Part shown: in pieces, positions 1 to 37,906 of the stretch
Numbering within the stretch: the stretch's first letter is position 1
How the letters are laid out: each line of letters opens with the position of its first letter
Assembly: GCA_045605345.1 (NCBI GenBank)
Contig: JAZUPT010000013.1
Span: forward strand, 802-64,801
DNA length: 64,000 nt
Direction: 5' to 3'
Source of the DNA: Candidatus Spyradenecus sp.
GTDB taxonomy: Bacteria; Verrucomicrobiota; Kiritimatiellia; RFP12; DVOR01
Notes under the pieces: model-generated
Told to the model about the DNA's origin: nothing
The model's database searches: none
The model's input: the letters and a program-made list of their open reading frames with translations, nothing else
Made by a program: the position numbers and the translations under genes

Positions 1-1517
1 ACAAGGCTTATAAGGAGTCGCTGATTAAAAGTATTAATACAGTTCTTAATAAAGATGTGGATGAACATAAAGATGATTTGAGTGGTATAGAATTTCCTGT
101 TATAGGGGTTGAGCTAACAAAGTATGATATATTGGATTCTGTATTGATAAAAAGAATAGAGGAGCAGATTCAAATATGCCAAGATATTATTGCGAAATAT
201 AAAGATTATGTTGATAAAAAGCAGGGTAATATATATACACCGATTACTATATCACGAATGGGGCTTTTGGAGTCTGTTAATTTGTTGAATGGTTTACTAA
301 AACAGTTGGATGACAAGCGAAAAGAATTTAATAATATTGTGGGCAGAAAAACCAAACTTGTTCAGCAACTTTTGTCAATTAATAACTTGATTGCGCATGT
401 GCAAATAGAACAAACGCATAGAGATTACAAAAAGCAAACTTCAGTAAAGAAGAAATTGGAAGATGAAGTTTCTGAAAAACAAAAAGCTTTAGATGTTGCA
501 AAAAAAAGATTAAAAGAATTAGAACAACGGAAAGCTAATACTGGTTTAGCTATTGGAAACATAAATCATTCTTTAGACTATGTGTTTTTTGAGCCGGGAA
601 GATTGTCTATTGAGTTGAAGAATGATAGATATTATTTAAAATCAAAAGGTAATGATGTAAAACCAAAAAATGTATCACAAGGTGAACGAAATATAATTGC
701 GTTATGCTATTTCTTTACTCAGATTCTATCGAATCAGGATGTTTTAAAACTTTATAAAAAAGAAATGTTTGTTGTTATTGATGATCCTGTTTCAAGTTTT
801 GATTTTGAAAATAAGGTAGGAATAATGTCATTTTTACGGCTTCAGATTAGTCGAATTATAAACGGTAATCAAAAAAGTAAGATTTTAATTTTGTCACATG
901 ATCTTGAGACAGTGTTTAATTTACGAAAGGCATTGGATGAGATATGTAAATCCACAAAGGAAATGAAGGATTGTAATTCTACATATACGGCATGGGAGTT
1001 GTGTAATGGACATTTAAATTTACTTTTTAATAAATGTAGTGAGTATAAGAATCTCTTAATAAGAATTTATAATTATGCTTATGGGAATATTACTGCCGGC
1101 AACACTACAATTGGCAATGCGATGCGCCGTGTATTAGAGGCGTTTTCAACATTCAATTATCAAAAAGGAATAGAACAGGTTTCATGTGATAAAAATATTT
1201 TAAAAGTCCTTGGCGAGCATTCTGTTTACTTTGAAAATTTGATGTATCGGTTGGTATTGCATGGCGAGAGTCATTATGAGGAACAAGTTAATAGTATGCA
1301 TGATGGAAACAATTTTTATGAGTTTATTTCAGAGGAAGAAAAGCAAAAGACAGCAAGAAATATTCTATGTTTTATTCATTTGCTCAATCCGTATCATTTG
1401 GTTGCGTATTTGAAAGATGAGAAGGATGCAATATCAAATATACAAAAATGGGTTGCCGCCGTGCCAAAGAATTCGGCGTTTAGTGTTAAGACTATATCGG
1501 AGAAGGAGCTTGAGTGA
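1..1517 (+). CDS. AAA_13-type (PrrC/RloC-like, ABC/SMC-fold) ATPase, 5' end outside the window
   Basis: The frame is open from nt 3 (no stop before the track's GTG at 57) to TGA 1515-1517. A long coiled-coil (KRKEFNN...LKELEQRK) is followed by signature-like SQGERNIIALCYFF, Walker B FVVIDDPVSSFD and ILILSHD. The C-terminal NAMRRVLEAFSTFNY block matches what I recall from Pfam AAA_13 proteins. Walker A is expected upstream of the window. Confidence 0.7.
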   Translation, partial: KAYKESLIKSINTVLNKDVDEHKDDLSGIEFPVIGVELTKYDILDSVLIKRIEEQIQICQDIIAKYKDYVDKKQGNIYTPITISRMGLLESVNLLNGLLKQLDDKRKEFNNIVGRKTKLVQQLLSINNLIAHVQIEQTHRDYKKQTSVKKKLEDEVSEKQKALDVAKKRLKELEQRKANTGLAIGNINHSLDYVFFEPGRLSIELKNDRYYLKSKGNDVKPKNVSQGERNIIALCYFFTQILSNQDVLKLYKKEMFVVIDDPVSSFDFENKVGIMSFLRLQISRIINGNQKSKILILSHDLETVFNLRKALDEICKSTKEMKDCNSTYTAWELCNGHLNLLFNKCSEYKNLLIRIYNYAYGNITAGNTTIGNAMRRVLEAFSTFNYQKGIEQVSCDKNILKVLGEHSVYFENLMYRLVLHGESHYEEQVNSMHDGNNFYEFISEEEKQKTARNILCFIHLLNPYHLVAYLKDEKDAISNIQKWVAAVPKNSAFSVKTISEKELE

Positions 1518-2131
1518 TGAAAACCTATCGAAAGATGGTAAGTTTGTTTGAGAGCGCAAATGCTACATTTTTGGAGCATGACAAGGCGTTGTTTGCCAGC
1601 CAAGTTTCTGAAAGAACTTTATGCGGCGCTTTAATGCTTCACATTCATGACATCATTGCATGCGACAGGAAATTTGCCGGATATCATGCGGATGTTGAAT
1701 ACAATCGAAACAAGGGTGCCATCAAGACTATATGCAAGACCATTAAAGGCCCAGATTTCAAGATTATTCCCATTAACTGTGATTTGATAGTTCATAGCCG
1801 CGGTGAAATCGTGGAGCAGGACAATCTTATCGCAATTGAGATGAAGAAGGCCACTGCGCCCCGCGCAGACAAAGAAAAGGACAGGGAAAGGCTTATTGCC
1901 CTTACAAAGGATTCGTTTGACGATGTCTGGCCCTTTGGCGGAAAGGCTCTTCCCGAATATGTTTGTTGTTACGTTTTGGGTGTTTATTACGAAATAAATT
2001 ACAAGCGAAAATCGATTCTGATTGAATACTACCGCAAGGGACATATGGTCAAGAGTCGAATAGTCGATTTGTGCGCAGCCTGTAGATCTGCCAAACTTGC
2101 TTCTGCTTCAACTGCTGTCCGTGAGATATGA
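1514..2131 (+). CDS. hypothetical protein with PD-(D/E)xK nuclease-like motif spacing
   Basis: The start (GTG 1514 / ATG 1517) overlaps the stop of the ATPase gene (GTGATGA). The translation shows SERTLCGAL (helix Glu), NCDLIVHSRG (Asp at a strand start) and NLIAIEMKK (E-x-K), which is the classical restriction-endonuclease-fold order. Confidence 0.45.
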   Translation: MMKTYRKMVSLFESANATFLEHDKALFASQVSERTLCGALMLHIHDIIACDRKFAGYHADVEYNRNKGAIKTICKTIKGPDFKIIPINCDLIVHSRGEIVEQDNLIAIEMKKATAPRADKEKDRERLIALTKDSFDDVWPFGGKALPEYVCCYVLGVYYEINYKRKSILIEYYRKGHMVKSRIVDLCAACRSAKLASASTAVREI

Positions 2132-2351
2132 AGATATTGAGAACTATATCATGAGTCTTGGCGATGACATCACGCAGACTTCATTGAAGTTCTATACGGC
2201 TTTTCGCAAGAGTTCAAATTTCGTGTGCGCGGAAGTGTTTACCGATCATGTTATCCTGCATCTTAAACTTAATCCAAAGAAGTTCCCGTTTGAGAAAGGG
2301 TTCTCGCGCGATATGACTAAAATCGGACACAGCGGCACAGACAACGTCTAA
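2097..2351 (+). CDS. small DUF5655-like protein or gene remnant
   Basis: 84-codon ORF (alternative ATG at 2151) overlapping the previous ORF by 35 nt. FYTAFRKSSNFVCAEV...LHLKLNP...RDMTKIGHSGTD resembles the DUF5655 pattern (k.yiaf...nFa.i......l.l...rdv...GHwGtGd) as I recall it, but it is short and ends abruptly. Confidence 0.3.
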   Translation: MLLLQLLSVRYEDIENYIMSLGDDITQTSLKFYTAFRKSSNFVCAEVFTDHVILHLKLNPKKFPFEKGFSRDMTKIGHSGTDNV

Positions 2352-2394
2352 TTGTACTTGAAAACCATTTCTGATTTCGAGAAGGAAAAACCAT

Positions 2395-3537
2395 ATGGAA
2401 ACACAACCGACAGAAGATTACATCATTCCAGATGAAGATACTACATTTAGTTTATTGCCTGATGGGAGAGAAGTGACATTTCCGGATTTGGGCGGGTTGC
2501 AAAACCATGTGCAAGAAGAGATTGCAGCATGGACTAATGTGGAAAATACGATTGCGGATAGATATAAAACGGTTTTGAGTAAACTTGAGAATGTTACCAA
2601 AGAAGCAAAAGATGGTCGTATTGAACTAGGCGCATTGTCTGAAGTTAAGAAGCTTTTGCAAGAATGGGCGGTTAATACGAATGGAATTAATTCATGTGTC
2701 GATTCTCATTCGCGGCTTGGACTGTATATTAAAGAATTAAAGGGGCGAAAGTTACAGGGACCTGTGTTTCGAGATTTTTGTTTGTTGGCAATGCTCGTTC
2801 TTGGATATCCGCTTCCTCAAATAAGATTTAATTCCCAAGTGTTTCCATTAGCGATTGAGGCAGCTAAAATTGCTAAATATTTTGCGTGTCCGGAAGATCT
2901 TACAGAGAAGATCAATGATTATAAGAGACGTATAGAAGAATTGACTGATTCAGCAGAAGGAATTAGTAGAGATTATGAACTTCGGAAATCACAGTTTGAA
3001 GAAAAGATAAGTATAGCGGAACATAAAATGGCGGCATTGGAAGATGCCTATTCAAAGAAGTTGCAATTAGAGGGACCTGCTCAACACTGGAAGAATCTTT
3101 CAAGGTTTTATTTGGGTTGGGGTTGGGGATTGTTAACTTTGTCATTAGTGTTAGGTGGTGTTGCAATAGCCGCCTTGATTTGGTTGTTAGTTCAGGCTGA
3201 TACAATAGTGATTTTTAACGAGGATAAGCTCAGTTTGTCGACAATTAGAGCGAGCCTTATTTTGATCGCCGCAACATCAATGGCTGGGTATCTATTGCAT
3301 TTATTTACCAAGTTGGCAATGAGTTGTTTTCATCTTTCGCGGGACTACCGTGAACGCTTTCAATTGACGAATGTGTTTTTGGCACTTTTACGTGATGGGG
3401 ATGTGAAATGCGATGACCAGGTTAAGCAGATAGTTATGCAGGCGCTTTTCAGCCGATCGGATACTGGGCTATTGAAAGGTGAACATTCCTTTAAGATGCC
3501 GGGTGTAGCAGATTTGGTAAGGAAAGAAGAGTCGTAA
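2395..3537 (+). CDS. membrane protein: ~240-aa soluble N-terminal region plus 2-3 C-terminal TM helices, function unknown
   Basis: ATG is preceded by GAAGGAAAAA. Hydrophobic segments GWGWGLLTLSLVLGGVAIAALIWLLV and ASLILIAATSMAGYLLHLF. A coiled-coil-like stretch lies before the TM region. I recognised no enzymatic motif. Confidence 0.5.
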   Translation: METQPTEDYIIPDEDTTFSLLPDGREVTFPDLGGLQNHVQEEIAAWTNVENTIADRYKTVLSKLENVTKEAKDGRIELGALSEVKKLLQEWAVNTNGINSCVDSHSRLGLYIKELKGRKLQGPVFRDFCLLAMLVLGYPLPQIRFNSQVFPLAIEAAKIAKYFACPEDLTEKINDYKRRIEELTDSAEGISRDYELRKSQFEEKISIAEHKMAALEDAYSKKLQLEGPAQHWKNLSRFYLGWGWGLLTLSLVLGGVAIAALIWLLVQADTIVIFNEDKLSLSTIRASLILIAATSMAGYLLHLFTKLAMSCFHLSRDYRERFQLTNVFLALLRDGDVKCDDQVKQIVMQALFSRSDTGLLKGEHSFKMPGVADLVRKEES

Positions 3538-4022
3538 TGGATGAAACAAAGAAAACGTCGGTTATGAAAACGACCTTTAAATTCAAGCCCAAAGCGGGCT
3601 ATGTGTATGTTGTTACAAACGAATGCCTAAAGCTTGTAAAGGCGAAGGGTGTTTTTAGGGGTAAGATGGTTAAGCCTGTGAAGATTGGCAATGCGAAGGA
3701 TTTTACGAGTCGTCTGGGATCACTGAATACGGCGGTCTATGAGAACTTTGATTTTCATTTAGGTATAAAGACTGATGATGTTGTTGGATTGGAAGGCATT
3801 ATCCACACAGCTTTGCAGGATTATAGGATTTACACGAGAGATGGTGATGCGACGGAATTCTTTGCATGTCCCTTGGATGAGGTTGTTGGCAGAATCAAAA
3901 ATCTTATCGTGCGCGGGCACAAGGTGGATGTTGAAGAATACAAAGGCGGCAAGGTGGTCGGGCGTTCGGGCGCAAAGATTCATGCTTTCCATCAAGATTT
4001 ACATTCCATCGGCGTTGAATAA
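3537..4022 (+). CDS. T5orf172 (GIY-YIG superfamily) domain protein
   Basis: The ATG overlaps the previous stop (TAATG). GYVYVVTNE...VKIGNAKDFTSRLGSLNT...LEGIIHTALQDYRI...ATEFFACPLDEVV matches the T5orf172/MUG113 pattern (GyvYv..n...vKIG.t.d...R...l......lE..lH..l...r....EfF). Confidence 0.6.
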   Translation: MDETKKTSVMKTTFKFKPKAGYVYVVTNECLKLVKAKGVFRGKMVKPVKIGNAKDFTSRLGSLNTAVYENFDFHLGIKTDDVVGLEGIIHTALQDYRIYTRDGDATEFFACPLDEVVGRIKNLIVRGHKVDVEEYKGGKVVGRSGAKIHAFHQDLHSIGVE

Positions 4023-4153
4023 TTTTTCGCATTGCGTAGTCAATACGCACTCGTTTTTTGGTATCCTTATTCACGTTAGCATTCCTCTTTTGATTGTTTT
4101 TTTGTTCAACTAAAATCATAGCGGATTTGCTGACTTTTTTCATTTTGGCGCGC

Positions 4154-4169
4154 CGCCCCCCGGGGGGCG
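4154..4169. repeat. perfect 16-bp GC palindrome CGCCCCCCGGGGGGCG at the AT-rich/GC-normal composition boundary
   Basis: Read directly. It sits exactly where the AT-rich left block ends. No T-run follows on either strand, so it is not a canonical intrinsic terminator. Confidence 0.6.
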
Positions 4170-4188
4170 TAAGGTGACAGTTCTTCTT

Positions 4189-4262
4189 CTTTCCTTTCTG
4201 ACATGCCTTCCTCTGAGCGGGTCTCTTTTTAGCCCCGCGGTTATATTGTGCAATATTCCGGG
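4189..4262 (+). promoter_or_regulatory. conserved ~70-nt intergenic motif, copy A (second copy at 58897-58967)
   Basis: CTTTCCTTTCTGACAtgCCTTCCTCTGAGCGG-N14-CCCGCGGTTAtATTGTGcAATATTCcGGG aligns almost base for base with 58897-58967. Both copies lie upstream of + strand genes for exported proteins. Confidence 0.5.
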
Positions 4263-4304
4263 AGGGAGAATGTTGATGAAGTGGTGTTAAGGTTTTAGAG
4301 GGTG

Positions 4305-4313
4305 TGTTATACT
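4305..4313 (+). promoter_or_regulatory. extended -10 promoter element TGTTATACT
   Basis: TGnTATACT lies 41 nt upstream of ATG 4354. The same element recurs upstream of tyrS, leuS, the PP-loop gene and others. Confidence 0.45.
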
Positions 4314-4353
4314 GTATTTATTCGCCATTTTATTAGGTAAGGAGGGGATTTGA

Positions 4354-5289
4354 ATGGTAAAGCTCATGTGCATCGTTTTGGGGGTGTTGTGTTGTTGGTC
4401 TCTTTGGGGGGCGGTGGCGGGTTTGTCTCCGGTGGCGCAACAGCATGCTAAGGTGTTGCAGGCGGCTTTTGAAAAGGGGAACCGTTGGGAGGCAGTATCG
4501 GAGGAGGATTTGCGGGAGTATGTGTTGCCTTTGACGTCTTTGGGGGAGGATGAGGTGGCGTGGTTGCCGGTGTTGCAACCGCTTGCACAGGAGTTTTCTG
4601 CCACGGCGAAGACACCATTAGAGGCGGCGATGTTGATTAATCGTCATCTTTGGAAGCGGATTCAGGTGATTTATTCAACGAAACGTGAGAAGGCAAATCA
4701 GGATCCGTTGCATTCGATTCGGTTGGGCCTTGCTTCGTGTTCGGGGCTTTCTATTCTTTTAGTGGATGCGTGCAGGAGCATTGGTATTCCGGCGCGTGTG
4801 GTGGGATGCGTGTGGAAGTTGAAGCCGGGGAATCACAGTTGGGTAGAGGTGAAGAGCGGTGGTAAGTGGTATCCGCTGGGGGCGTTTGAGGATGTGCCAC
4901 CAGATCAATTGTGGTTTTTGTCAGATGCGGCGGCGGCGGATGGCACAGATCTGCGTTATGCTATCTATGCGGCGCGAGCTACGTCGGATGGGACGCGCTT
5001 TTTTGGTTGGGACGTGCCTGCAGAGAATGTGACGGCGCACTATGTGAAGTCGAAGCCCGCCACCGAGGGATGCCGCATTTTCTACGCGGTGGAACGTCAT
5101 GGTGCGCGTGTAGCGGAACCGTTTAGCGTGAATGGCGTGACTTATTATTCGCCGGGTCCACTTCAGGATATGAATGATTATGCAGAGATTGTTTTGCCCG
5201 CACCGGGTCCTTTTGAGGTGCAGATGCAGGGGAAAGTCTATCGTTACGTGGGGCAGAATAATCAAATTATTGTGGAGCAATTACCATGA
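4354..5289 (+). CDS. transglutaminase-like superfamily protein, exported/lipoprotein-like
   Basis: Strong SD (AAGGAGG) a few nt upstream. N-terminal MVKLMCIVLGVLCCWSLWG. Transglutaminase core pattern LGLASCSGLSILLVDACRSIGIPARVVGC...GNHSWVEV. Confidence 0.7.
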   Translation: MVKLMCIVLGVLCCWSLWGAVAGLSPVAQQHAKVLQAAFEKGNRWEAVSEEDLREYVLPLTSLGEDEVAWLPVLQPLAQEFSATAKTPLEAAMLINRHLWKRIQVIYSTKREKANQDPLHSIRLGLASCSGLSILLVDACRSIGIPARVVGCVWKLKPGNHSWVEVKSGGKWYPLGAFEDVPPDQLWFLSDAAAADGTDLRYAIYAARATSDGTRFFGWDVPAENVTAHYVKSKPATEGCRIFYAVERHGARVAEPFSVNGVTYYSPGPLQDMNDYAEIVLPAPGPFEVQMQGKVYRYVGQNNQIIVEQLP

Positions 5290-20598: not shown

Positions 20599-20842
20599 CT
20601 ACGATAAAGGAGGAGCTTCGCAGAGGGTAGGGCGGCGTCGCCCCCACGTCTCTCTTGTCTTCTAATCACCCGCTATCCAGTGTGGTACCAAACGACGGGG
20701 ATGCTGCGCTCCCCGTACCCCTCGCACCCTTGCCTTTCTTCCTCTCTTTTCTCTCTTCAAAATCCCTTTAAAATCCCTTACGCAGGTGTGTCACTTTTTT
20801 GAAATTTTTAGCGAATTTTCGCCTGTTGAAAACTTTTTTGAG

Positions 20843-20862
20843 TTATCAACAAGTTATCAACA
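20843..20862 (+). promoter_or_regulatory. tandem DnaA-box-like 9-mers TTATCAACA-ag-TTATCAACA (third copy at 21050-21058)
   Basis: Each 9-mer differs from the TTATCCACA consensus at one position. The same doublet plus singleton is present in copy 2 (37347-37366, 37554-37562). Confidence 0.3.
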
Positions 20863-21098
20863 ATACACGTTTTTTGACGCAGTTTTGGGAAAATTTTCTG
20901 GTGAAGCGATGGGTTTTCGGCGCTTTTGCTCGACTTTATTAGAAATGCATAACACATTGAAAAAGAAAGAGATAATGTTAAAACTGGGCGAAATTAACTC
21001 CGCTACAGTCGCTTCCTTGCGAAAAAAAGGGCATCAGGGGGAGGGAAAGTTATCAACAATTTGCCCGTTTTTTAGGGAAGTCTAAAGAAAATCTGGGT

Positions 21099-21160
21099 CA
21101 ATATGGGCGAAACTGAGTCGCAATATGGGCGAAATTGGGTACCCAAAAGAGGCGAAATTG
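21099..21160 (+). repeat. 22-bp periodic iterons CAATATGGGCGAAAYTG (2 full + 1 partial)
   Basis: 21099-21115, 21121-21137 and partial AGGCGAAATTG 21150-21160. An extra GGGCGAAATT lies near 20985. Confidence 0.6.
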
Positions 21161-21453: not shown

Positions 21454-22731
21454 ATGAAGTTTTTTGATTTTCTGAAGTCCCGTCATTTGGTGGATACTTG
21501 CACGTGCGATGAGGCGAAGATGGCGGAGTTGTTGGAGACGCCACAGACGGTTTATGTGGGGTTTGACCCAACGGCTTCGTGTTTGCAGGCGGGTAACTAT
21601 GTGGCGATTCAGACGTTGGCGCAATTCCAGCGTGCGGGTCACAAGGTGATTGCTTTGGTGGGTGGTGCTACGGGCATGATTGGCGATCCTTCGGGGCGTT
21701 CGACGGAACGTAACTTCCTCTCTGTGGAAGAGCTTCAGCGTAATGTTGAGGGGATTAAGGAAAACCTTTCTCGCTTTTTGGATTTCAATCATCCGACTAA
21801 TCCGGCAATTTTGTTGAATAACTACGATTGGTACAAGGATTATTCGGTGTTGCCCTTCTTGCGTGAAGTGGGGACGCTTTTCCGTATGAAGCCGATGTTG
21901 GCGAAGGATTCGGTGCAGAAGCGTTTGAATGCCGAGACGAATTCGATGACTTTCACGGAGTTCACCTACCAGATTCTCCAGGGGTATGACTTCTACTACT
22001 TGAATAAGCATTATGGGTGCACGATGCAGGTGGGCGGTGCGGACCAGTGGGGCAACATCACGGCGGGCACGGACTTGATTCATCGTTTGAATCCTGGTTC
22101 TGAATGCCATGGCTTGACGATTCCTTTGGTGTGCGATGCCAATGGCCAGAAGTTTGGCAAGTCTGCGGGTAATGCAATCTTCTTGAATGCGGATAAGACG
22201 AGCGTTTACGCATTCTATCAATTCTTCTTGCGCACGTTGGATGCCGATGCGATTCGTTACTTGCGCATCTTTACCTTCTTGGATGAAGCACGTATTGCTG
22301 AATTGGAAGCGTCGTTGAAGGAACATCCGGAATTGCGCGAACCGCAGAAGGTGTTGGCTGAAGAGCTGACGCGTGCGGTCCACGGTGAAGCGGGTCTTGA
22401 ATCTGCGCGTAAGGCCTCTGCGGTGCTCTTTGGCGGTTCGTTAGAGGGTCTTACGGCGGCGGATTTGGAAGGCATCGCCTCGGATGTGCCGTCTGCAGAA
22501 CTGGCAAAGGAAACCGTGGCAGCACAGTCCGTGATGGATGTGGTGACGGCGTGCGGTTTCGTGAAGAGCAAGAGCGAAGCGCGTCGTTTGATTCAGGGCG
22601 GTGGGCTTTCCATCAACAATATCAAGGTGACGGATGTGAATGCTACGGTCGCTGATGAACAGTTGATTGACGGCAAGGTGCTCTTGCTTCGCCAGGGGAA
22701 GAAGAATTACTTCCTCCTGCGCGTGAAGTAA
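21454..22731 (+). CDS. tyrS: tyrosine--tRNA ligase
   Basis: GFDPTASCLQAGN (HIGH region), KFGKSAGN (KMSKS) and a C-terminal S4 domain (SKSEARRLIQGGGLSINN). Confidence 0.95.
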   Translation: MKFFDFLKSRHLVDTCTCDEAKMAELLETPQTVYVGFDPTASCLQAGNYVAIQTLAQFQRAGHKVIALVGGATGMIGDPSGRSTERNFLSVEELQRNVEGIKENLSRFLDFNHPTNPAILLNNYDWYKDYSVLPFLREVGTLFRMKPMLAKDSVQKRLNAETNSMTFTEFTYQILQGYDFYYLNKHYGCTMQVGGADQWGNITAGTDLIHRLNPGSECHGLTIPLVCDANGQKFGKSAGNAIFLNADKTSVYAFYQFFLRTLDADAIRYLRIFTFLDEARIAELEASLKEHPELREPQKVLAEELTRAVHGEAGLESARKASAVLFGGSLEGLTAADLEGIASDVPSAELAKETVAAQSVMDVVTACGFVKSKSEARRLIQGGGLSINNIKVTDVNATVADEQLIDGKVLLLRQGKKNYFLLRVK

Positions 22732-32649: not shown

Positions 32650-32723
32650 TGGTTGCCTCACAAGGATTCGAACCTTGACAAACTGATCCAGAGTCAGTTG
32701 TGCTACCGTTACACAATGAGGCA
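32650..32723 (-). tRNA. tRNA-Gln (anticodon CUG), CCA encoded
   Basis: The reverse complement folds by hand as a cloverleaf. Acceptor UGCCUCA/UGAGGCA, D stem GUGU/GCAC, anticodon stem ACUGA/UCAGU with loop CU-CUG-GA, T arm CAAGG-UUCGAAU-CCUUG, discriminator A plus CCA. Confidence 0.9.
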
Positions 32724-32823
32724 ATAAACGTAAAACGCGACACATTATGCCAAACGTCATTCTCAAATGCAAGCACTTTTTAAAAAATTTTTACTTTTAG
32801 GTCGTATTATTTTTCTTATTAAG

Positions 32824-33106
32824 TTTCATTTCTTCGGCCCTTCGTACTATTTTCTAAAATTTTCTAAACAATTCTAAAAAGTTTCGGACAAAAATTGTAC
32901 TATTTAAGATTTCTTCCCGAGAGGAAATTTCCCCTTAAAATAATTTGCACGGAAAGATTTTGTACTGTTTAAATTTTGCACGGATAGTACAAATTGTACT
33001 GATTTTAAGCTTAAAATTGCCGGCCATAAAATATTCAAGATAAGTTATTGTAAATGAATAAGTTATGGTGCGGTAAATATAGTACAAAGTATTGAAGAAA
33101 TGAAAT
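32824..33106 (+). repeat. MITE-like repeat R1, copy a (283 bp)
   Basis: 12/12 terminal inverted repeats TTTCATTTCTTC/GAAGAAATGAAA. Colinear with R1b and R1c, with an internal ~65-bp duplication. Contains the palindrome AGTACAA-A-TTGTACT. Confidence 0.75.
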
Positions 33107-33112
33107 AACTTA

Positions 33113-33287
33113 TATGAATTTATCCCACTTTTGTACTAATTTTGGAGAAATACAATAGTACAAAATGCATAGCCCCATACTAATTTTTTGGAATGTAATT
33201 TAGCCCCGAAATAAGCTATTAGAAATCAATTACATATGAATGCAAATGCGGCTCCCCAAAATAGTACAATCATCTGAAAAAATGATA
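33113..33287 (+). repeat. repeat R2, copy a (175 bp)
   Basis: Near-identical to 34022-34197 (ATATGAATTTATCCC...GTACAATCATCTGAAAAAATGATA). Confidence 0.8.
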
Positions 33288-33348
33288 CAATTACATATGA
33301 ATGCAAAACGGCTCCCCAAAAATGGTACAATCATCTGAAAAAATGATA
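33227..33348 (+). repeat. 61-bp tandem duplication of the 3' end of R2a
   Basis: Units 33227-33287 and 33288-33348 (CAATTACATATGAATGCAAA..GGCTCCCCAAAA..GTACAATCATCTGAAAAAATGATA) differ at only a few positions. Confidence 0.85.
33323..33331 (+). promoter_or_regulatory. extended -10 element TGGTACAAT for ORF 33370
   Basis: Lies in the second 61-bp unit, 39 nt before ATG 33370, which has SD AAGGAG at 33357-33362. The first unit has TAGTACAAT instead. Confidence 0.45.
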
Positions 33349-33369
33349 GATTAAGAAAGGAGCGGGAGC

Positions 33370-33888
33370 ATGAAGAAGAAAATGCTATTTGCTGTGCTTG
33401 CGGGGGTGATGATTGCCATAGGATGGTTGGTCGTTGCCAAGATGAACAAGAATCCAACCAGTGAAAAGGAGAAGAAAATGAACGAGGAAAGACCTCAACT
33501 GTCAAAAGAGTGTTCCAGATTGCTTGACGTCTCGATAGAAAGCAATGTTCCTATCGTCCTTGACATGGGCGAGGACTTCTGTCCGACGCTTTATGTGACC
33601 GAAGGCGAGCGCGGCACGTTCTACAATCTGGCTGGTTTTGCGTCTATTGAGGAGCTTCGCGCCAAATCAAAGGAGGTGTTGGCTAACATGGCCTCCGTCA
33701 AGGCCTATCTCCTGGCATACGCACCGGCCTGTGAGATGGGGGGCGCCCGCAAGGTTCTGCTAGTCATGGAAACTGCTGACAGGAGCGATGCCAATGCGAC
33801 AGTGGTGGCGGTTGTCTGCGATGTCGATAAGAAACAGTCTGAGGATGGGCTGAAGCTGCTGCCCCAGGCCGATTCGCTCTTCAAGTAG
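33370..33888 (+). CDS. hypothetical exported/membrane-anchored protein (172 aa)
   Basis: Good SD. N-terminal MKKKMLFAVLAGVMIAIGWLVVA hydrophobic anchor. I recognised no motif. Confidence 0.5.
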   Translation: MKKKMLFAVLAGVMIAIGWLVVAKMNKNPTSEKEKKMNEERPQLSKECSRLLDVSIESNVPIVLDMGEDFCPTLYVTEGERGTFYNLAGFASIEELRAKSKEVLANMASVKAYLLAYAPACEMGGARKVLLVMETADRSDANATVVAVVCDVDKKQSEDGLKLLPQADSLFK

Positions 33889-33947
33889 TGCAAGTTATGG
33901 TGATGTGCAGACGATGGATGTTGAAGCGCAAGAAAGGAGCTAACGAA

Positions 33948-34013
33948 ATGAATACGCGGATGATGTTTGCGCGGGTCGTCGCGGGAGATTTTAGACAGGA
34001 TTTACAAGATTGA
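33948..34013 (+). CDS. 21-codon ORF MNTRMMFARVVAGDFRQDLQD with strong SD (speculative)
   Basis: AAAGGAG lies 8 nt upstream of ATG 33948, with TGA at 34011-34013. There is no other support. Confidence 0.15.
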   Translation: MNTRMMFARVVAGDFRQDLQD

Positions 34014-34021
34014 CAGGATTA

Positions 34022-34197
34022 ATATGAATTTATCCCGCTTTTGTACTAATTTTAGAGAAATGCAATAGTACAAAATGCATAACCTCATACTAATTTTTTG
34101 GAATGCAATTTAGCCCCGAAATAAGCTATTAGAAATCAATTACATATGAATGCAAATGCGGCTCCCCAAAATAGTACAATCATCTGAAAAAATGATA
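34022..34197 (+). repeat. repeat R2, copy b (176 bp)
   Basis: Near-identical to 33113-33287. Confidence 0.8.
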
Positions 34198-34248
34198 AAC
34201 TTAAGTTGGTTTCAACAATGATCTCATTCTTATTTAACTTTGATATCA

Positions 34249-34466
34249 TTTCACTTCTTCAGAGCTTCGTACTATTTTCTAGAATTTTCTAGATAGGTCT
34301 AAAAAGTCCCCGGCCAAAAATTGTACTGTTTAAATTTTGCATGAATCGTACAAGTTGTACTGTTTTTGCTCCTAATGCTACCAGCCTAAAATATTCAAAA
34401 TGAGTTATTGTAAATGAATAAGTTATGGCTCTGCAAATAGAGTACAAAGTATTGAAGAAGTGAAAT
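34249..34466 (+). repeat. MITE-like repeat R1, copy b (218 bp)
   Basis: Termini TTTCACTTCTTC/GAAGAAGTGAAA are again 12/12 complementary. Relative to copy a, the T>C change in the left arm is matched by A>G in the right arm. Confidence 0.75.
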
Positions 34467-34566
34467 CTTTTGTCAAATATTTCACTTTAAATCCATTGCA
34501 ATGGCGAACCATGTAGTATTCCCCATAGTGATTCTTGCAAGTGTTTAGATTAAAGCGGGGATTGAG

Positions 34567-35802
34567 TTATTCCTTCCAGCCTAAAATTCTATAGAATTTT
34601 GGAAGCTTCCCAGTGTCAGCGAAGTTGATATATGGTGTGGCGACTGACGCAGGAATCGGCGTTTCTTCACAAGGACATTTTGCGAGTTCTGAACCTTGGG
34701 CCAACATAAGACACTTTCCTCGTGGACGGCGGAGGGTTTGCTGCATCTCTGTAAGCGCATGAGAGAGCGAGGTTTGTTGTAAATTGCCAAATGAAATTGG
34801 GGTGAAATCGCATGGTTGTAGATTGCCAAGCATATCTACATAAAAATGCTGAAAACCTGCGCCACATCCATACCGATCTGCATCTTCAATGAAGGCGAAA
34901 GAGGAGACTTTGGTTGCAGAGGGGATGTGATTCGAAGTGCAGTGAATAGATTTTAGCCAATCATGCTGTTGGGCAGAAATCCTCCAAGCATCTTCACCTA
35001 AAAGTCTACCACACGGCATTGGTTCTAAAAGGCGAACCTCATGCACGCCTAATGCTTTAGTAAAGTCGAGATAGCGCTGCATCCAAGAGGGGTCGCAACG
35101 ATCTTTTGTGGCAACGATTTGGGTCATGGTGTAAAGACCCGCTCGTTGAAGGCAATCAATCGCCTTGAGCGCAGTTTTGAAGGCGCCCTTGATGCCTCTT
35201 CCTCGGTCATGTTCGTCTGCATCAAAAGAGTCTAAACTGACGGCGGCGCCGAAGAGCCCTGCAGCTTTTAATGCGCGTGCTCGATCCTCGGTAAGACCAT
35301 CTCCTGCGGTAAAAAGAAATGTGATTGAGCGTTCATCTACACTTGCGATAAGTTCTTCTAACCGTTCACATAAGAGGGGCTCACCACCTGTAAAACCAAG
35401 AATGGCAACGCCGAGGTCTTGCGCTTCACGAAGGATTCGCTTCCAAACGTCTACCGTTAAGGCTTTGCCTTTTCGCCCCACCTTGCTACAGTGAGGGCAA
35501 TTATAACGGCACGCATCGGTAATTGCGAAGTAGGCTGAGACTGGAGTAATGAGTTTGGTGGACTGTTGAGCATCGCGAAGCTGGGCAACTTTACTTGCGA
35601 GTCCTGCAAAAGCGGGAGAGGGGAAGGGCGGCAGAAAAGAATTGACGACATAACGCCCTTCGTGTTTGACAAGTTTTTCGGAGGAGAGGAGGCGATTCAT
35701 AGCAAGAAGTTGTCGCCATGAAAGGTGTTGATAGCCTTCGTAACGCAGGGTTTTACTCAATGCTAAAAGGCGTTTCATGCCTACGACATATTGCGGTTTC
35801 AT
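34567..35802 (-). CDS. radical SAM enzyme with C-terminal SPASM/twitch-like Cys cluster
   Basis: CxxxCxxC in ITDACRYNCPHCSKVG, and GGEPLL. C-terminal CGAGFQHFYVDMLGNLQPC plus GKC...AKCPC. I prefer ATG 35802 (MKPQYVV), which forms an ATGA overlap with the methyltransferase stop; the track start at 35823 is TTG. Confidence 0.75.
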   Translation of the reverse strand: MKPQYVVGMKRLLALSKTLRYEGYQHLSWRQLLAMNRLLSSEKLVKHEGRYVVNSFLPPFPSPAFAGLASKVAQLRDAQQSTKLITPVSAYFAITDACRYNCPHCSKVGRKGKALTVDVWKRILREAQDLGVAILGFTGGEPLLCERLEELIASVDERSITFLFTAGDGLTEDRARALKAAGLFGAAVSLDSFDADEHDRGRGIKGAFKTALKAIDCLQRAGLYTMTQIVATKDRCDPSWMQRYLDFTKALGVHEVRLLEPMPCGRLLGEDAWRISAQQHDWLKSIHCTSNHIPSATKVSSFAFIEDADRYGCGAGFQHFYVDMLGNLQPCDFTPISFGNLQQTSLSHALTEMQQTLRRPRGKCLMLAQGSELAKCPCEETPIPASVATPYINFADTGKLPKFYRILGWKE

Positions 35803-36680
35803 GGCTTTACTCCTTTTGCCCAAGCGTAACGATGCTCGATTTTCAAACCATCAGGTTTAAGATCGCGTTCGATAAATTGAATGAATGCAGTATCACATGC
35901 ATCACGCATTGTGGGAGCCATCGCTTGGTCAAATCCAGCAGATACACCTGTTTGTAATGACCACTCTAAAACTGCTCGCCCATTCGCAAAAGGCAATGCT
36001 TCGGCGCCCTCTCCATTACAAATCTTGACAAACCCACAGCACTGCAAAAGGCGTTGCAGCGAATGCGCATTTTTGGGAAGATTGAGGTGTAAATCCATAA
36101 GCGCCATGAGCGCATGCGGATATTCCATTGCCACACGAAAGGCGGCATTGCGTATTTGCAACCACGTGTCTCGCTTATTTTCAAGAATTAAGAAGAGCCC
36201 ACCTTGTTTTAACTTACGATAAACGAGGCGTGTTAATCGTTTTGGTTTAACATAACCAATAGCCCATGCACAACTGACGATATCGAGAGAATTGTCGGGT
36301 AACTGAGCAAGTCTTTCTTCCATTTCGCCATGCAATAACTGTGCTGTTGGACAGCGTTTGGAAGCCTCGCGCAACATCCCTGCAGATTGGTCGATGCCGA
36401 TTAACTCTGCTTCAGGGTAATGCTCTGCCCAAGTTGCCAAAAGAGCACCCGTTCCACAAGCGAGATCAAGGATACGAGCCTTTTGGGGAAGGTCTTCGAC
36501 GCATGCAATGAGAGCATCTGAATGTGCTTTGGCATGAGCCGAAAAATGGGTGTCGTAGCCTACACTAATTCGGTCATAATCAGCCGCAATTGCCGATTGA
36601 GAAACATAGGTCTTTTTTAATAAAAGCGTACAGACGCGAAGAAGTGTTCGAATTGGTTTTGCACCCATAAAGAGAGTCAT
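35799..36680 (-). CDS. class I SAM-dependent methyltransferase
   Basis: Motif I ILDLACGTGALL, post-I IGIDQS, and LDIVSCAWAIGYV; 293 aa. Confidence 0.75.
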   Translation of the reverse strand: MTLFMGAKPIRTLLRVCTLLLKKTYVSQSAIAADYDRISVGYDTHFSAHAKAHSDALIACVEDLPQKARILDLACGTGALLATWAEHYPEAELIGIDQSAGMLREASKRCPTAQLLHGEMEERLAQLPDNSLDIVSCAWAIGYVKPKRLTRLVYRKLKQGGLFLILENKRDTWLQIRNAAFRVAMEYPHALMALMDLHLNLPKNAHSLQRLLQCCGFVKICNGEGAEALPFANGRAVLEWSLQTGVSAGFDQAMAPTMRDACDTAFIQFIERDLKPDGLKIEHRYAWAKGVKP

Positions 36681-36697
36681 CCTCGTTGCAATTTCAA

Positions 36698-36931
36698 TTA
36701 TATTCTATAGGATTTCGAAAATTGGTGCAAGACGTGAGCATATAGCAATAATGCAGCTGATGGTTTAGTACAACTTTGGTGGTAGATGTGTACAAAAGGG
36801 AAGGGCGTAATAGCATGCAAAAAGGTGATAGTGGCGGAGAGGCGTAATGTTTTACAGAGGTTTTTACTATGAGTAGCTATTTCGCTTTTACCTATTTGGG
36901 TAGTCTTGAAGAATAAACCCAATGATTTCAC
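36698..36931 (-). CDS. 77-codon ORF immediately upstream of the methyltransferase (speculative; possible precursor/leader)
   Basis: Co-directional and ends 18 nt before ATG 36680. The GTG start lies inside the left terminus of R1c with GAAGGG 8 nt upstream. AT-rich, with no internal Met and no recognisable motif. Confidence 0.2.
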   Translation of the reverse strand: MKSLGLFFKTTQIGKSEIATHSKNLCKTLRLSATITFLHAITPFPFVHIYHQSCTKPSAALLLYAHVLHQFSKSYRI

Positions 36932-37141
36932 TTTTTCGGCCCTTCGTACTATTTTCTAAAGTTTTCTAAATAGGGCTAAAAAGTTTCGGACAAAAATTGT
37001 ACTATTTAAATTCTGTATGAATGGTACAGACTGTACTGATTTTAAGCCAAATGCTACCAGCCTAAAATATTCAAAATGAGTTATTGTAAATGAATAACTT
37101 ACGGCACGGCAAATATAGTACAAAGTATTGAAGAAATGAAA
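36926..37141 (+). repeat. MITE-like repeat R1, copy c (216 bp)
   Basis: Termini are TTTCACTTTTTC/GAAGAAATGAAA (10/12 complementary). Colinear with R1a and R1b. Confidence 0.75.
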
Positions 37142-37601
37142 TATTAAGGTAAAAGAAAGAGAAAAGTGAGGGGGAAGAAGTGAGGAGAAAGGAGAGAGGG
37201 CGCGGGGAGGAGAGGTGGGGGCGGCGTCGCCCCCACGTCATCCCATCTATCCCTTTTCTCCTTTTTCCCCTTCAAAATCCCTTACGCAGGTTTATCACTT
37301 TTTTGAAAATTTTAGCGAATTTTCGCCTGTTGAAAACTTTTTTGAGTTATCAACAAGTTATCAACAATACACGTTTTTCAATGCAGTTTTTTGAAAATCC
37401 TTCGGCGAATCGGCCCATTTTAGGCACTTTTGCTCAACTTTGCTAAAACTGCATAACTCCTTGAGAAATAAGGAGATAAAGCAAAAATAGGGGTAAATCA
37501 ACTCCGCTACAGCGGCTTCCTTGCGAAAATTTGGGGTAGAAGTGGTAGAAAAGTTATCAACAATTGGGAGCTTTTTGGGGAAAGCTAAAGGAATTCCGGG
37601 T

Positions 37602-37662
37602 CAATATGGGCGAAATTGAGTTGCAATATGGGCGAAATTGATGAGTAAAATGGGCGAAATTG
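37602..37662 (+). repeat. 22/23-bp periodic iterons CAATATGGGCGAAATTG (3 copies)
   Basis: Read directly. The last copy pairs with TCGCCCAT (37674-37681), followed by TTTT. Confidence 0.6.
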
Positions 37663-37760
37663 GGTAGGCAAAGTCGCCCATTTTCCCAAGGGAAAACCGC
37701 CTACTTTCCGCGGGATTTTAACTGACTTGCCTCAGCGGAGTTGACGACGTTTCTCCGTTT

Positions 37761-37792: not shown

Positions 37793-37906
37793 ATTTTTGT
37801 CTAAGATGAAGAATCGTACGCTGAGGTGAAAAGGGGGGCGCCATCTCGAATTGCGAACATTTCAGAAGGGGAGCGTATTTTGGGTCTATATTTATTAATG
37901 TAAATG

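Follow-up and report, generated by a model that had tools for sequence, protein, structure and literature searches.

A radical SAM enzyme and methyltransferase pair, possibly acting on lipids, on a MITE-bounded composite transposon of gut Kiritimatiellae

Two overlapping genes, one for an enzyme of the radical S-adenosylmethionine (SAM) type, the other for a SAM-dependent methyltransferase, raise the question of what such a pair modifies and how it came to lie where it does. The pair occupies positions 34567-36680 of a 64,000-nt stretch of a gut Kiritimatiellae genome, Candidatus Spyradenecus sp. (assembly GCA_045605345.1, contig JAZUPT010000013.1, positions 802 to 64,801), which we call the window and always mean at its full length. 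Other stretches of genomes and metagenomes that were fetched for comparison carry the prefix L, and protein relatives of the radical SAM enzyme carry the prefix P. On the evidence below, we give a probability of roughly 0.55 to the reading that the pair is a two-enzyme module for tailoring a small molecule or a lipid, carried on a composite transposon built from MITEs (miniature inverted-repeat transposable elements).

The enzyme pair and its family

The pair comprises the following features, with residues of the radical SAM enzyme numbered on its 418-aa open reading frame (ORF) from TTG.

35799-36680, minus strand: class I SAM methyltransferase with a C-terminal lid, 293 aa; its TGA stop overlaps the radical SAM ATG
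34567-35802, minus strand: twitch-type radical SAM enzyme; 411 aa when read from the ATG at 35802
34567-35823, minus strand: longer radical SAM ORF, 418 aa, with its start TTG at 35823
Parts of the radical SAM enzyme: N-terminal family-specific domain with NSFLPPFPSxAF; radical SAM cysteines C105/C109/C112; auxiliary cysteines C320/C338/C371

Read directly in the DNA, the two genes overlap by ATGA at 35802-35799, as a preliminary description of this sequence had proposed for a radical SAM enzyme that starts MKPQYVV, and a GGAG lies ~8 nt upstream of the ATG at 35802. The overlap and the GGAG together make MKPQYVV the most likely start, for a protein of 411 aa, and would couple its translation to that of the methyltransferase. 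All the motifs quoted in the same description were located—CRYNCPHC (CX3CX2C, residues C105/C109/C112), GGEPLL (residues 146-151), the C-terminal CGAGFQHFYVDMLGNLQPC (C320...C338), GKC (C371), and EGRYVVNSFLPPFPSPAF, and motif I of the methyltransferase, ILDLACGTGALL—although the spacing between GKC and CPC (C383/C385) is X11, not the X12 given there. The radical SAM enzyme scores 70 bits against PF04055 Radical_SAM (Pfam cut-off 29.5), which places it in the radical SAM superfamily, and the methyltransferase scores 63 bits against Pfam Methyltransf_25/11. When the window is compared with a 97%-identical copy in L005, 12 changed codons of the methyltransferase gene are synonymous and 3 non-synonymous, and for the radical SAM gene the counts are 10 and 6; since synonymous changes outnumber non-synonymous ones in each, both genes are under purifying selection.

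We compared gene neighbourhoods across 73 homologous loci from genomes and metagenomes. In about 41 of these, a BLAST-detectable homolog of the window methyltransferase lies directly upstream of the radical SAM gene, often overlapping it, or is fused to it, and fusions occur in both orders—radical SAM-methyltransferase proteins of ~670 aa (P0076-P0119) and methyltransferase-radical SAM proteins (P0167, P0219). Because the two are usually adjacent, and in many loci fused in either order, they probably work together, and the pairing and fusions suggest that they act on the same substrate; overlap, adjacency, and fusion thus bear out the earlier idea of a compact two-enzyme module. The hosts span Kiritimatiellae, Lentisphaerota/Victivallales, Verrucomicrobiota, Planctomycetota, Omnitrophota, Hydrogenedentota, Desulfobacterota, Acidobacteriota, Spirochaetota, and Clostridia among bacteria, together with several archaeal metagenome-assembled genomes (MAGs). 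Some carriers are in culture, among them Maledivibacter halophilus M1 (L026), Victivallis vadensis DSM 14823 (L032), and Desulforapulum autotrophicum (L053). In Clostridia (L024, L026, L127/L128), two methyltransferases, of ~190-200 aa and ~287-295 aa, precede the radical SAM gene, and these operons often carry a MatE exporter on the upstream side and, on the downstream side, an alpha/beta hydrolase or an Rce1-like protease.

A word-indexed search yielded 925 relatives of the radical SAM enzyme, and phmmer, run exhaustively against 1.84 billion cluster representatives, returned 257 matches (clusters at 50% identity) at E<=1e-30 as against 2847 at E<=1e-10, a step that marks out a discrete, modest-sized group inside the superfamily. 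Conservation was judged in two alignments, one of 30 sequences and then one of 264. The C105/C109/C112 triad and GGE (G146-G147-E148) are invariant in both, and exactly three further cysteines are family-wide, being present in 253-259 of ~260 sequences—C320 (GCGAG), C338 (PCD/N), and C371 (PRxxC). C320-X12-G333-X4-C338 corresponds to the opening half of the SPASM signature; the family lacks the other half, CX2CX5CX3C, CPC (C383/C385) is kept only in relatives of at least 59% identity, and H326 is ~78% conserved. The match to the Pfam SPASM profile is correspondingly marginal, at 24.3 bits (cut-off 21.5) over profile positions 1-46 of 67. Since the second-cluster cysteines are not conserved and only C320, C338, and C371 are kept, the C-terminal domain is best read as twitch type, with a single predicted auxiliary cluster on these three residues, and a full SPASM domain, with two auxiliary clusters and a seven-cysteine motif, was rejected. 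The defining pattern of a twitch domain, a truncated SPASM with CX9-15GX4C plus one further cysteine for one [4Fe-4S] cluster, is found in about 255 of 260 sequences. What the preliminary description had called a partial SPASM or twitch pattern is thereby narrowed to twitch: its auxiliary cysteines hold as C320/C338/C371, and its CPC does not.

An N-terminal extension of ~90 residues belongs to the whole family. Its N-terminal half is variable, whereas EKL...G..V.NSFLPPFPSxAF (residues 47-72) is strongly conserved, with P65 in 234 of 243 sequences; the extension has no match in Pfam (PqqD included) or among PDB sequences. In an AlphaFold2 model of the enzyme (pLDDT 94), this domain is predicted as a small helix/beta-hairpin unit, a beta-alpha3-beta2 module. 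A Foldseek search with the model returned generic relatives only, at TM-scores of ~0.5-0.6 on the query—SkfB, SuiB, MoaA, viperin, DesII, BlsE, PqqE, and anSME—and a sequence search of the PDB agrees.

No NCBIfam model comes near its curated cut-off for the radical SAM enzyme. The best is AhbD, with 100 bits against 500, and StsB (98 against 625), MoaA (74 against 325), and HpnH (46 against 225) are also below theirs; none of the curated equivalogs AhbD, NirJ, PqqE, MoaA, StsB, SkfB, MftC, and HpnH passes. The methyltransferase likewise falls below the NCBIfam cut-offs of UbiE (62 against 158), BioC (60 against 185), and Tam (44 against 297), a likeness of fold only. The same scores could speak for action of the pair on a cofactor, or on a tetrapyrrole- or quinone-type metabolite, with decarboxylation as by AhbD or NirJ and methylation as by UbiE: the top NCBIfam matches are AhbD, NirJ2, and PqqE for the radical SAM enzyme and UbiE/MenG for the methyltransferase. 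All of them, however, lie 3-5 fold below the curated cut-offs, and no heme, quinone, or cofactor pathway genes recur nearby, so we hold such a role to be highly improbable. Pairs of the ArsS/ArsL-ArsM, MqnC/E-MenG, and Elp3/Trm9 types were rejected for want of supporting NCBIfam matches.

Pfam and NCBIfam profile searches therefore give no curated family for the tailoring module that we favor, in line with the earlier statement that the pair is not assignable to a characterised one; uncharacterised radical SAM families are common. With the twitch and SPASM enzymes (SkfB, SuiB, MoaA, BtrN, AhbD, BlsE) the window enzyme shares the CX3CX2C core, the GGE motif, a partial TIM barrel, and a C-terminal CX12GX4C...C auxiliary-cluster domain, and with MoaA in particular the three cysteine ligands of that domain. 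It differs from them in scoring below every curated cut-off, in lacking the CX2CX5CX3C second-cluster motif, in the NSFLPPFPSxAF N-terminal domain that is unique to its family, and in having a class I methyltransferase as partner or fusion. Judged by sequence, the family appears to be new within the twitch radical SAM enzymes, uncharacterised but widespread.

The methyltransferase model (pLDDT 91) shows a Rossmann core and a C-terminal helical/beta lid, an arrangement that resembles small-molecule carboxyl or thiol methyltransferases such as Tam, BioC, JHAMT, and TmtA. Among solved structures, those closest to it are of two kinds, thiol methyltransferases (TmtA/GtmA) and carboxyl methyltransferases (Tam, with a TM-score of 0.82 on the target, AbBioC, JHAMT, and HvrF), all sharing the core and lid, and the NCBIfam profiles that align through the lid are those of BioC and Tam. 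Sequence matches in the PDB include phospholipid/phosphoethanolamine N-methyltransferases and sugar N,N-dimethyltransferases; because the matches span thiol, carboxyl, and N-methyltransferases, homology does not fix the methyl acceptor atom.

The MITE-bounded composite transposon

How the pair reached its present position can be read from the repeats around it. The features of the island are as follows.

32817-32823: left target-site duplication TATTAAG, 7 bp, read directly and identical to 37142-37148
32824-33105, plus strand: MITE R1, long form, 282 nt, with terminal inverted repeats TTTCATTTCTTC.../...GAAGAAATGAAA
33101-33360, plus strand: D1a, a second repeat family with a tandem 61-nt unit, upstream of the 172-aa ORF; recurs beside MITEs elsewhere
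33370-33888, plus strand: cargo 1, an ORF of 172 aa whose N-terminal segment is hydrophobic; no relation to the enzyme pair
34011-34248, plus strand: D1b, second D1 copy, from repeat comparison
34249-34465, plus strand: MITE R2, short form, 217 nt, without a 66-nt internal segment, from repeat comparison
36698-36931, minus strand: 77-codon ORF, judged non-coding; promoter/leader region of the operon, running into MITE R3
36926-37141, plus strand: MITE R3, short form, 216 nt, from repeat comparison
37142-37148: right target-site duplication TATTAAG, read directly

R1, R2, and R3 are direct copies of one repeat that contains no ORF. Elements of this family are about 217-283 nt long, with ends TTTCAYTTCTTC... 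and ...GAAGAARTGAAA (the left end also read as TTTCACTTCTTC...), and their terminal inverted repeats of ~30 nt are roughly 80% complementary, the outermost 12 nt matching exactly. At least 60 copies, mostly full-length, are dispersed in two Ca. Spyradenecus and four RGIG Kiritimatiellae MAGs, and solo copies have direct duplications of 6-8 bp on either side—CCTATTG in L096, L101, and L121, GCAGGCA in L109, and GCATGG in L126. Because it is non-coding and dispersed, and has terminal inverted repeats and target duplications, we identify the repeat as a MITE. TATTAAG lies directly outside R1 and R3, which means that the 4.3-kb R1...R3 block was inserted as one unit, and the enzyme pair is cargo of a 4.3-kb non-autonomous composite transposon at 32824-37141. 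The insertion sits between tRNA-Gln(CTG) (32650-32723) and argC (37906), and GC content within the island is 0.38-0.49, compared with ~0.55 in its flanks. Elsewhere, too, pairs of these MITEs enclose unrelated cargo with a single 8-bp duplication outside, as in L105 (CCGCACTG; a methyltransferase as cargo) and L113 (CCGTATTG; a 614-aa secreted protein).

The inner MITE-radical SAM-methyltransferase-MITE unit recurs, 97% identical and with identical inner junctions, in the unrelated context of L005, where homoserine dehydrogenase/aspartokinase genes flank it on one side and crp/hcp/feoB on the other. The site that holds this unit in L005 carries a solo MITE in L116, which suggests that homologous recombination between MITE copies also moves cargo. 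In L001 (MAG RGIG7486, from water buffalo colon), the shared stretch is 95-100% identical to the window and the insertion site is the same, with a different first cargo and R3 lost; the junction of R2 towards the radical SAM gene, TCTTTTGTCAAA, is the same in the window, L001, and L005. The target duplication, the L005 copy, and the dispersed repeats agree with the composite transposon that the preliminary description had inferred, with the amendment that its ends are non-coding MITEs rather than insertion sequences.

No transposase was found among the scanned low-GC or flanking ORFs of the window, a search for an empty site in metagenomes gave no match, and Rfam recognised only the tRNA-Gln on the island. 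An integron cassette array, to which the repeat-cassette-repeat layout might be likened, was rejected, since the repeats are MITEs with target duplications of their own and the island has no integrase; so was a tRNA-targeted integrative island, given the lack of an integrase and a target duplication that points to transposition. Carriage by phage or plasmid was rejected as well: this radical SAM family is absent from IMG/VR, and the plasmid collection PLSDB gives one match, at 27% identity.

Mobile carriage would itself be explained if a viperin-like radical SAM enzyme and its methyltransferase made or neutralised a toxic small molecule in defence or resistance. The pair is indeed cargo of the MITE composite among other accessory cargo, the PADLOC models for prokaryotic viperins (pVip) match the radical SAM enzyme at 49 bits, and in L130 the radical SAM gene lies beside Abi_2, HNH, and PemK-like genes. 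The pVip match, though, is no stronger than generic MoaA or PqqE matches, the majority of homologs are found in stable operons of the chromosome, together with housekeeping lipid genes, and the PLSDB and IMG/VR results speak against a defence role too; we regard it as highly improbable. Assignment to pVip itself was rejected, 49 bits being of the order of generic radical SAM matches and the context in other phyla being housekeeping. In L130 (3967-6532, 7943-8492), the HNH, Abi_2, DUF2442, and PemK-like genes are wedged between DUF3419/methyltransferase genes and the radical SAM gene, and mobile or defence genes appear to have invaded that operon.

Whatever the pair modifies, its surroundings record a new MITE family that builds composite transposons and reshuffles their accessory cargo in gut Kiritimatiellae, for which, to our knowledge, almost no mobile elements have been described. 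The type of element is itself known. A pair of 439-bp MITEs brackets blaPER-1 in Acinetobacter (PMC3934969), and MITE-bounded composites have also been described as TIME-COMPs (PMC13367494). As in those systems, two or three non-coding elements in direct orientation bracket the cargo and a target duplication flanks the whole, but the window MITEs form a new family (about 217-283 nt, with a 6-8-bp duplication, in gut Kiritimatiellae), and their cargo is metabolic or accessory where that of the Acinetobacter pair is antibiotic resistance. The window composite is thus a new family of a known element type.

Two observations concern the repeats themselves. D1, which brackets the 172-aa ORF, lies directly beside MITE copies in L104, L106, L111, and L117, and may therefore be another non-autonomous element or else a promoter that is portable. 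MITE flanks in L096, L100, L101, L106, L113, and L121 show nearly the same target, (C/G)AAACC(C/G)TATTG...TTTTG, as if the element preferred a partly palindromic site of which these genomes hold repeated copies.

Candidate substrates of the pair

In other genomes, the genes that repeatedly accompany the pair or are fused to it are those of lipid metabolism. A large LplT-Aas fusion follows the pair, or its fused form, in Kiritimatiellae (L007, L008), in a Verrucomicrobiota single-amplified genome (L015), and in a Sedimentisphaerales MAG (L048); its gene overlaps the radical SAM gene in L007 and L008, and in L007 the protein reaches 1349 bits with the acyl-[ACP]--phospholipid O-acyltransferase model, whose cut-off is 1221. 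PlsY and a FeeM-like N-acyl synthase sit in the same gene strings. In L010, a fusion of the radical SAM family is preceded by diacylglycerol kinase, CdsA, a CDP-alcohol phosphatidyltransferase, and an LCM methyltransferase, and in L025, an archaeal MAG, the partner methyltransferase forms one protein with an apolipoprotein N-acyltransferase (205 bits with lnt, against a cut-off of 133), its gene lying directly upstream of the radical SAM gene and overlapping it. An alpha/beta hydrolase is fused to the radical SAM enzyme in P0037 and is adjacent or close in L015, L023-L025, L027, L048, L013, L127/L128, and L129, and AMP-binding (acyl-activating) enzymes occur in L039, L078, and L129. In the operons of L027, L019, and L130, the first gene encodes a DUF3419 protein (191 bits), and after it come a LysO-like membrane protein and a short UbiE-like methyltransferase; we take DUF3419 to be the family to which BtaA belongs, the enzyme that acts as SAM:diacylglycerol aminocarboxypropyl transferase in the synthesis of betaine lipids.

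In E. coli, Lnt is a source of lysophospholipids, which LplT flips, Aas re-acylates, and alpha/beta hydrolases of this type break down. By analogy with these roles, the theme that the neighbours share would be acyl-lipid or lysolipid remodelling. The recurrence of a methyltransferase with an esterase also recalls the methyl-ester protection and deprotection of BioC and BioH, and the alpha/beta hydrolase beside the pair has weak BioH-like matches; against this likeness, the window methyltransferase is far below the BioC, Tam, and UbiE cut-offs and has no biotin context, and the window cassette has no hydrolase. Neighbourhoods and fusions together lead us to favor a lipid substrate specifically, whether a membrane acyl lipid or a lipid-derived carboxylate, which we put at somewhat short of an even chance; lysophospholipids, fatty acyl groups, and polar head groups would be examples.

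If so, the chemistry might run as follows. The radical SAM enzyme would hold its canonical [4Fe-4S]/SAM site and a predicted auxiliary cluster on three cysteines. A three-cysteine auxiliary cluster, as in MoaA, usually leaves one iron free for substrate or a fourth ligand, and because only three invariant cysteines are available here, one iron is probably free to bind substrate. The 5'-deoxyadenosyl radical could then functionalise an unactivated C-H bond of the lipid, for which C-C or C-S bond formation, dehydrogenation, and decarboxylation are all candidates, and the methyltransferase could then cap that molecule at a carboxylate, thiol, or amine. The alpha/beta hydrolase and the acyl-activating or acyl-transfer enzymes (Aas, Lnt, PlsY) found with many relatives may feed or recycle the substrate.

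The closest known precedents fit this scheme in part. A 2026 review names, as radical SAM enzymes that modify lipids, Tes, Mss, Gms, GrsA/B, Gmm, Cds, HpnH/J/P/R, Jaw5, and ladderane candidates (PMC13459092). The window pair would do similar work, functionalising inert lipid carbons by radical chemistry in anaerobes, but none of the listed enzymes matches the window family, is paired with a class I methyltransferase, or bears the NSFLPPFPSxAF domain. Synthesis of the betaine lipid diacylglyceryltrimethylhomoserine (DGTS) by BtaA and BtaB resembles it in another way, with SAM-derived chemistry and then methylation on a lipid head group, and the DUF3419 protein and short UbiE-like methyltransferase share an operon with the radical SAM gene in L027, L019, and L130; the window, however, has no DUF3419 gene, BtaA is not a radical enzyme, and a link between DGTS and the radical SAM family would be one of analogy. 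More tentatively, the whole may be an undescribed lipid-tailoring system of anaerobes, in which a twitch radical SAM enzyme and a methyltransferase put a new modification on membrane lipids and are moved by MITE-bounded transposons. Its targets could be a lysophospholipid, an acyl chain, or an amino- or betaine-type head group made with BtaA-like enzymes. If this is true, two genes suffice, so the trait can hop between gut Kiritimatiellae genomes. Lipid-modifying radical SAM enzymes are few, and they are important to membrane biology and to the interpretation of lipid biomarkers, so that a phylogenetically broad two-gene family offers a small, concrete target in the search for new lipid or metabolite modifications in anaerobes.

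The structural matches open a different route, in which the pair would tailor a nucleotide or nucleotide sugar, with the radical SAM enzyme acting like MoaA, viperin, BlsE, or DesII and the methyltransferase methylating its product as in the DesII/DesVI deoxyaminosugar pathways. Those four enzymes rank high among the matches in both fold and sequence, with a TM-score of up to 0.78 when normalised to viperin, and a three-cysteine auxiliary cluster with an open site is, as established knowledge has it, the arrangement of MoaA. The sugar N,N-dimethyltransferases DesVI and TylM1 are among the sequence matches of the methyltransferase, and nucleoside diphosphate-sugar epimerase/dehydratase genes lie near the pair in L012, L037, L054, L071, and L078. 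On the query, though, the likeness is to a generic radical SAM core (TM-score ~0.5), and in most of those loci the sugar genes are neither adjacent nor co-oriented. A glycosyltransferase is conserved nowhere, whereas the fused or overlapping genes encode lipid enzymes, and we think a nucleotide substrate unlikely.

A ribosomally synthesised and post-translationally modified peptide (RiPP) comes to mind for similar reasons: the radical SAM enzyme would modify or crosslink a precursor peptide bound by its N-terminal domain, and the methyltransferase would methylate the peptide, for example at its C-terminus. SkfB and SuiB, which come closest in both structure and sequence, are RiPP maturases that bear recognition domains at their N-termini, StsB and SkfB are among the best NCBIfam matches, and LahSB, a RiPP C-terminal methyltransferase, is among the fold matches of the partner; the N-terminal domain, moreover, is predicted as a small helix/beta-hairpin module. 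In sequence, Pfam and the PDB nevertheless give no match of that domain to PqqD or another RiPP recognition element, and conservation within it is highest in a PPxP motif beside the barrel, not in a peptide-binding sheet. The preliminary description had seen no transporter, protease, or obvious precursor beside the pair, and likewise no small ORF, protease, or transporter is conserved across the 73 loci. In L094, a pair 58-62% identical to that of the window stands alone, flanked by only 117 and 176 nt of intergenic DNA, and the fusion partners elsewhere are lipid enzymes.

Neither of the two candidate peptide substrates proposed for the window survives. The 77-codon ORF has no Pfam or NCBIfam match and evolves like non-coding DNA: with 2 synonymous and 6 non-synonymous changed codons between the window and L005, and with 20 codons missing from the truncated copy in L001, it is not a gene, and since its start also lies inside the MITE, it was rejected as a precursor. 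A promoter and terminator scan gave nothing above the shuffled expectation. The 172-aa ORF, which has no Pfam or NCBIfam family match either, was rejected as a substrate because it is a separate, exchangeable cargo segment: it is absent beside the pair in L005 and L094, and in L001 its slot (3029-5045) holds two paralogous Sel1-repeat lipoprotein-like ORFs of 348 and 273 aa. Nothing, in sum, suggests a RiPP substrate, and we consider it decidedly improbable that the pair acts on a ribosomal peptide. Where the preliminary description had named the 77-codon ORF, the 172-aa exported protein, or a lipid or small molecule, the first two drop out, and the third gains from the context in other genomes.

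Several observations weigh against a lipid- or small-molecule-tailoring module carried by a MITE composite. About 30 of the 73 loci, mostly at <=35% identity, have no BLAST-detectable methyltransferase, and a distant Bacteroidota branch (~30% identity) is partnered instead by two small proteins and a GMC/Fer4 oxidoreductase. Many loci (for example L013, L094, and L012), and the window cassette itself, have no lipid genes nearby. The top structural matches of the radical SAM enzyme are RiPP maturases and nucleotide-acting enzymes rather than known lipid radical SAM enzymes, and the archaeal members (L025, L028, L030, L066) would need a substrate common to archaea and bacteria. This radical SAM family has no studied member, and a literature search on radical SAM enzymes and methyltransferases with lipids, LplT/Aas, betaine lipids, and Kiritimatiellae returned nothing relevant. 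On the side of the transposon, the search for a transposase with matching ends came up empty: the 37 genome stretches with a match to the terminal repeat are, every one, further 283-nt copies of the MITE.

Other repeats and an accessory islet

Beyond the composite, the window holds a ~375-nt repeat in two plus-strand copies of 83% identity, at 37268-37640 and 20764-21137. Each copy contains three TTATCAACA boxes, spaced alike in the two copies (7 matches in the window, against 0.54 expected), and each lies upstream of a plus-strand housekeeping gene, argC at 37906 and tyrS at 21454; there is no Rfam match to the repeat, which could be a shared regulatory leader or another mobile repeat. Just downstream of the argC-proximal copy, in the argC upstream region, three tandem 22-nt units (CAATATGGGCGAAATTGAGTTG) occupy 37602-37667. 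At the other end of the window, positions 1-4000 have a GC content of 0.30-0.43 and encode an AAA_13 ATPase (57-1517) and a DUF6161 protein (2395-3537), and this segment looks like a separate accessory or defence islet.

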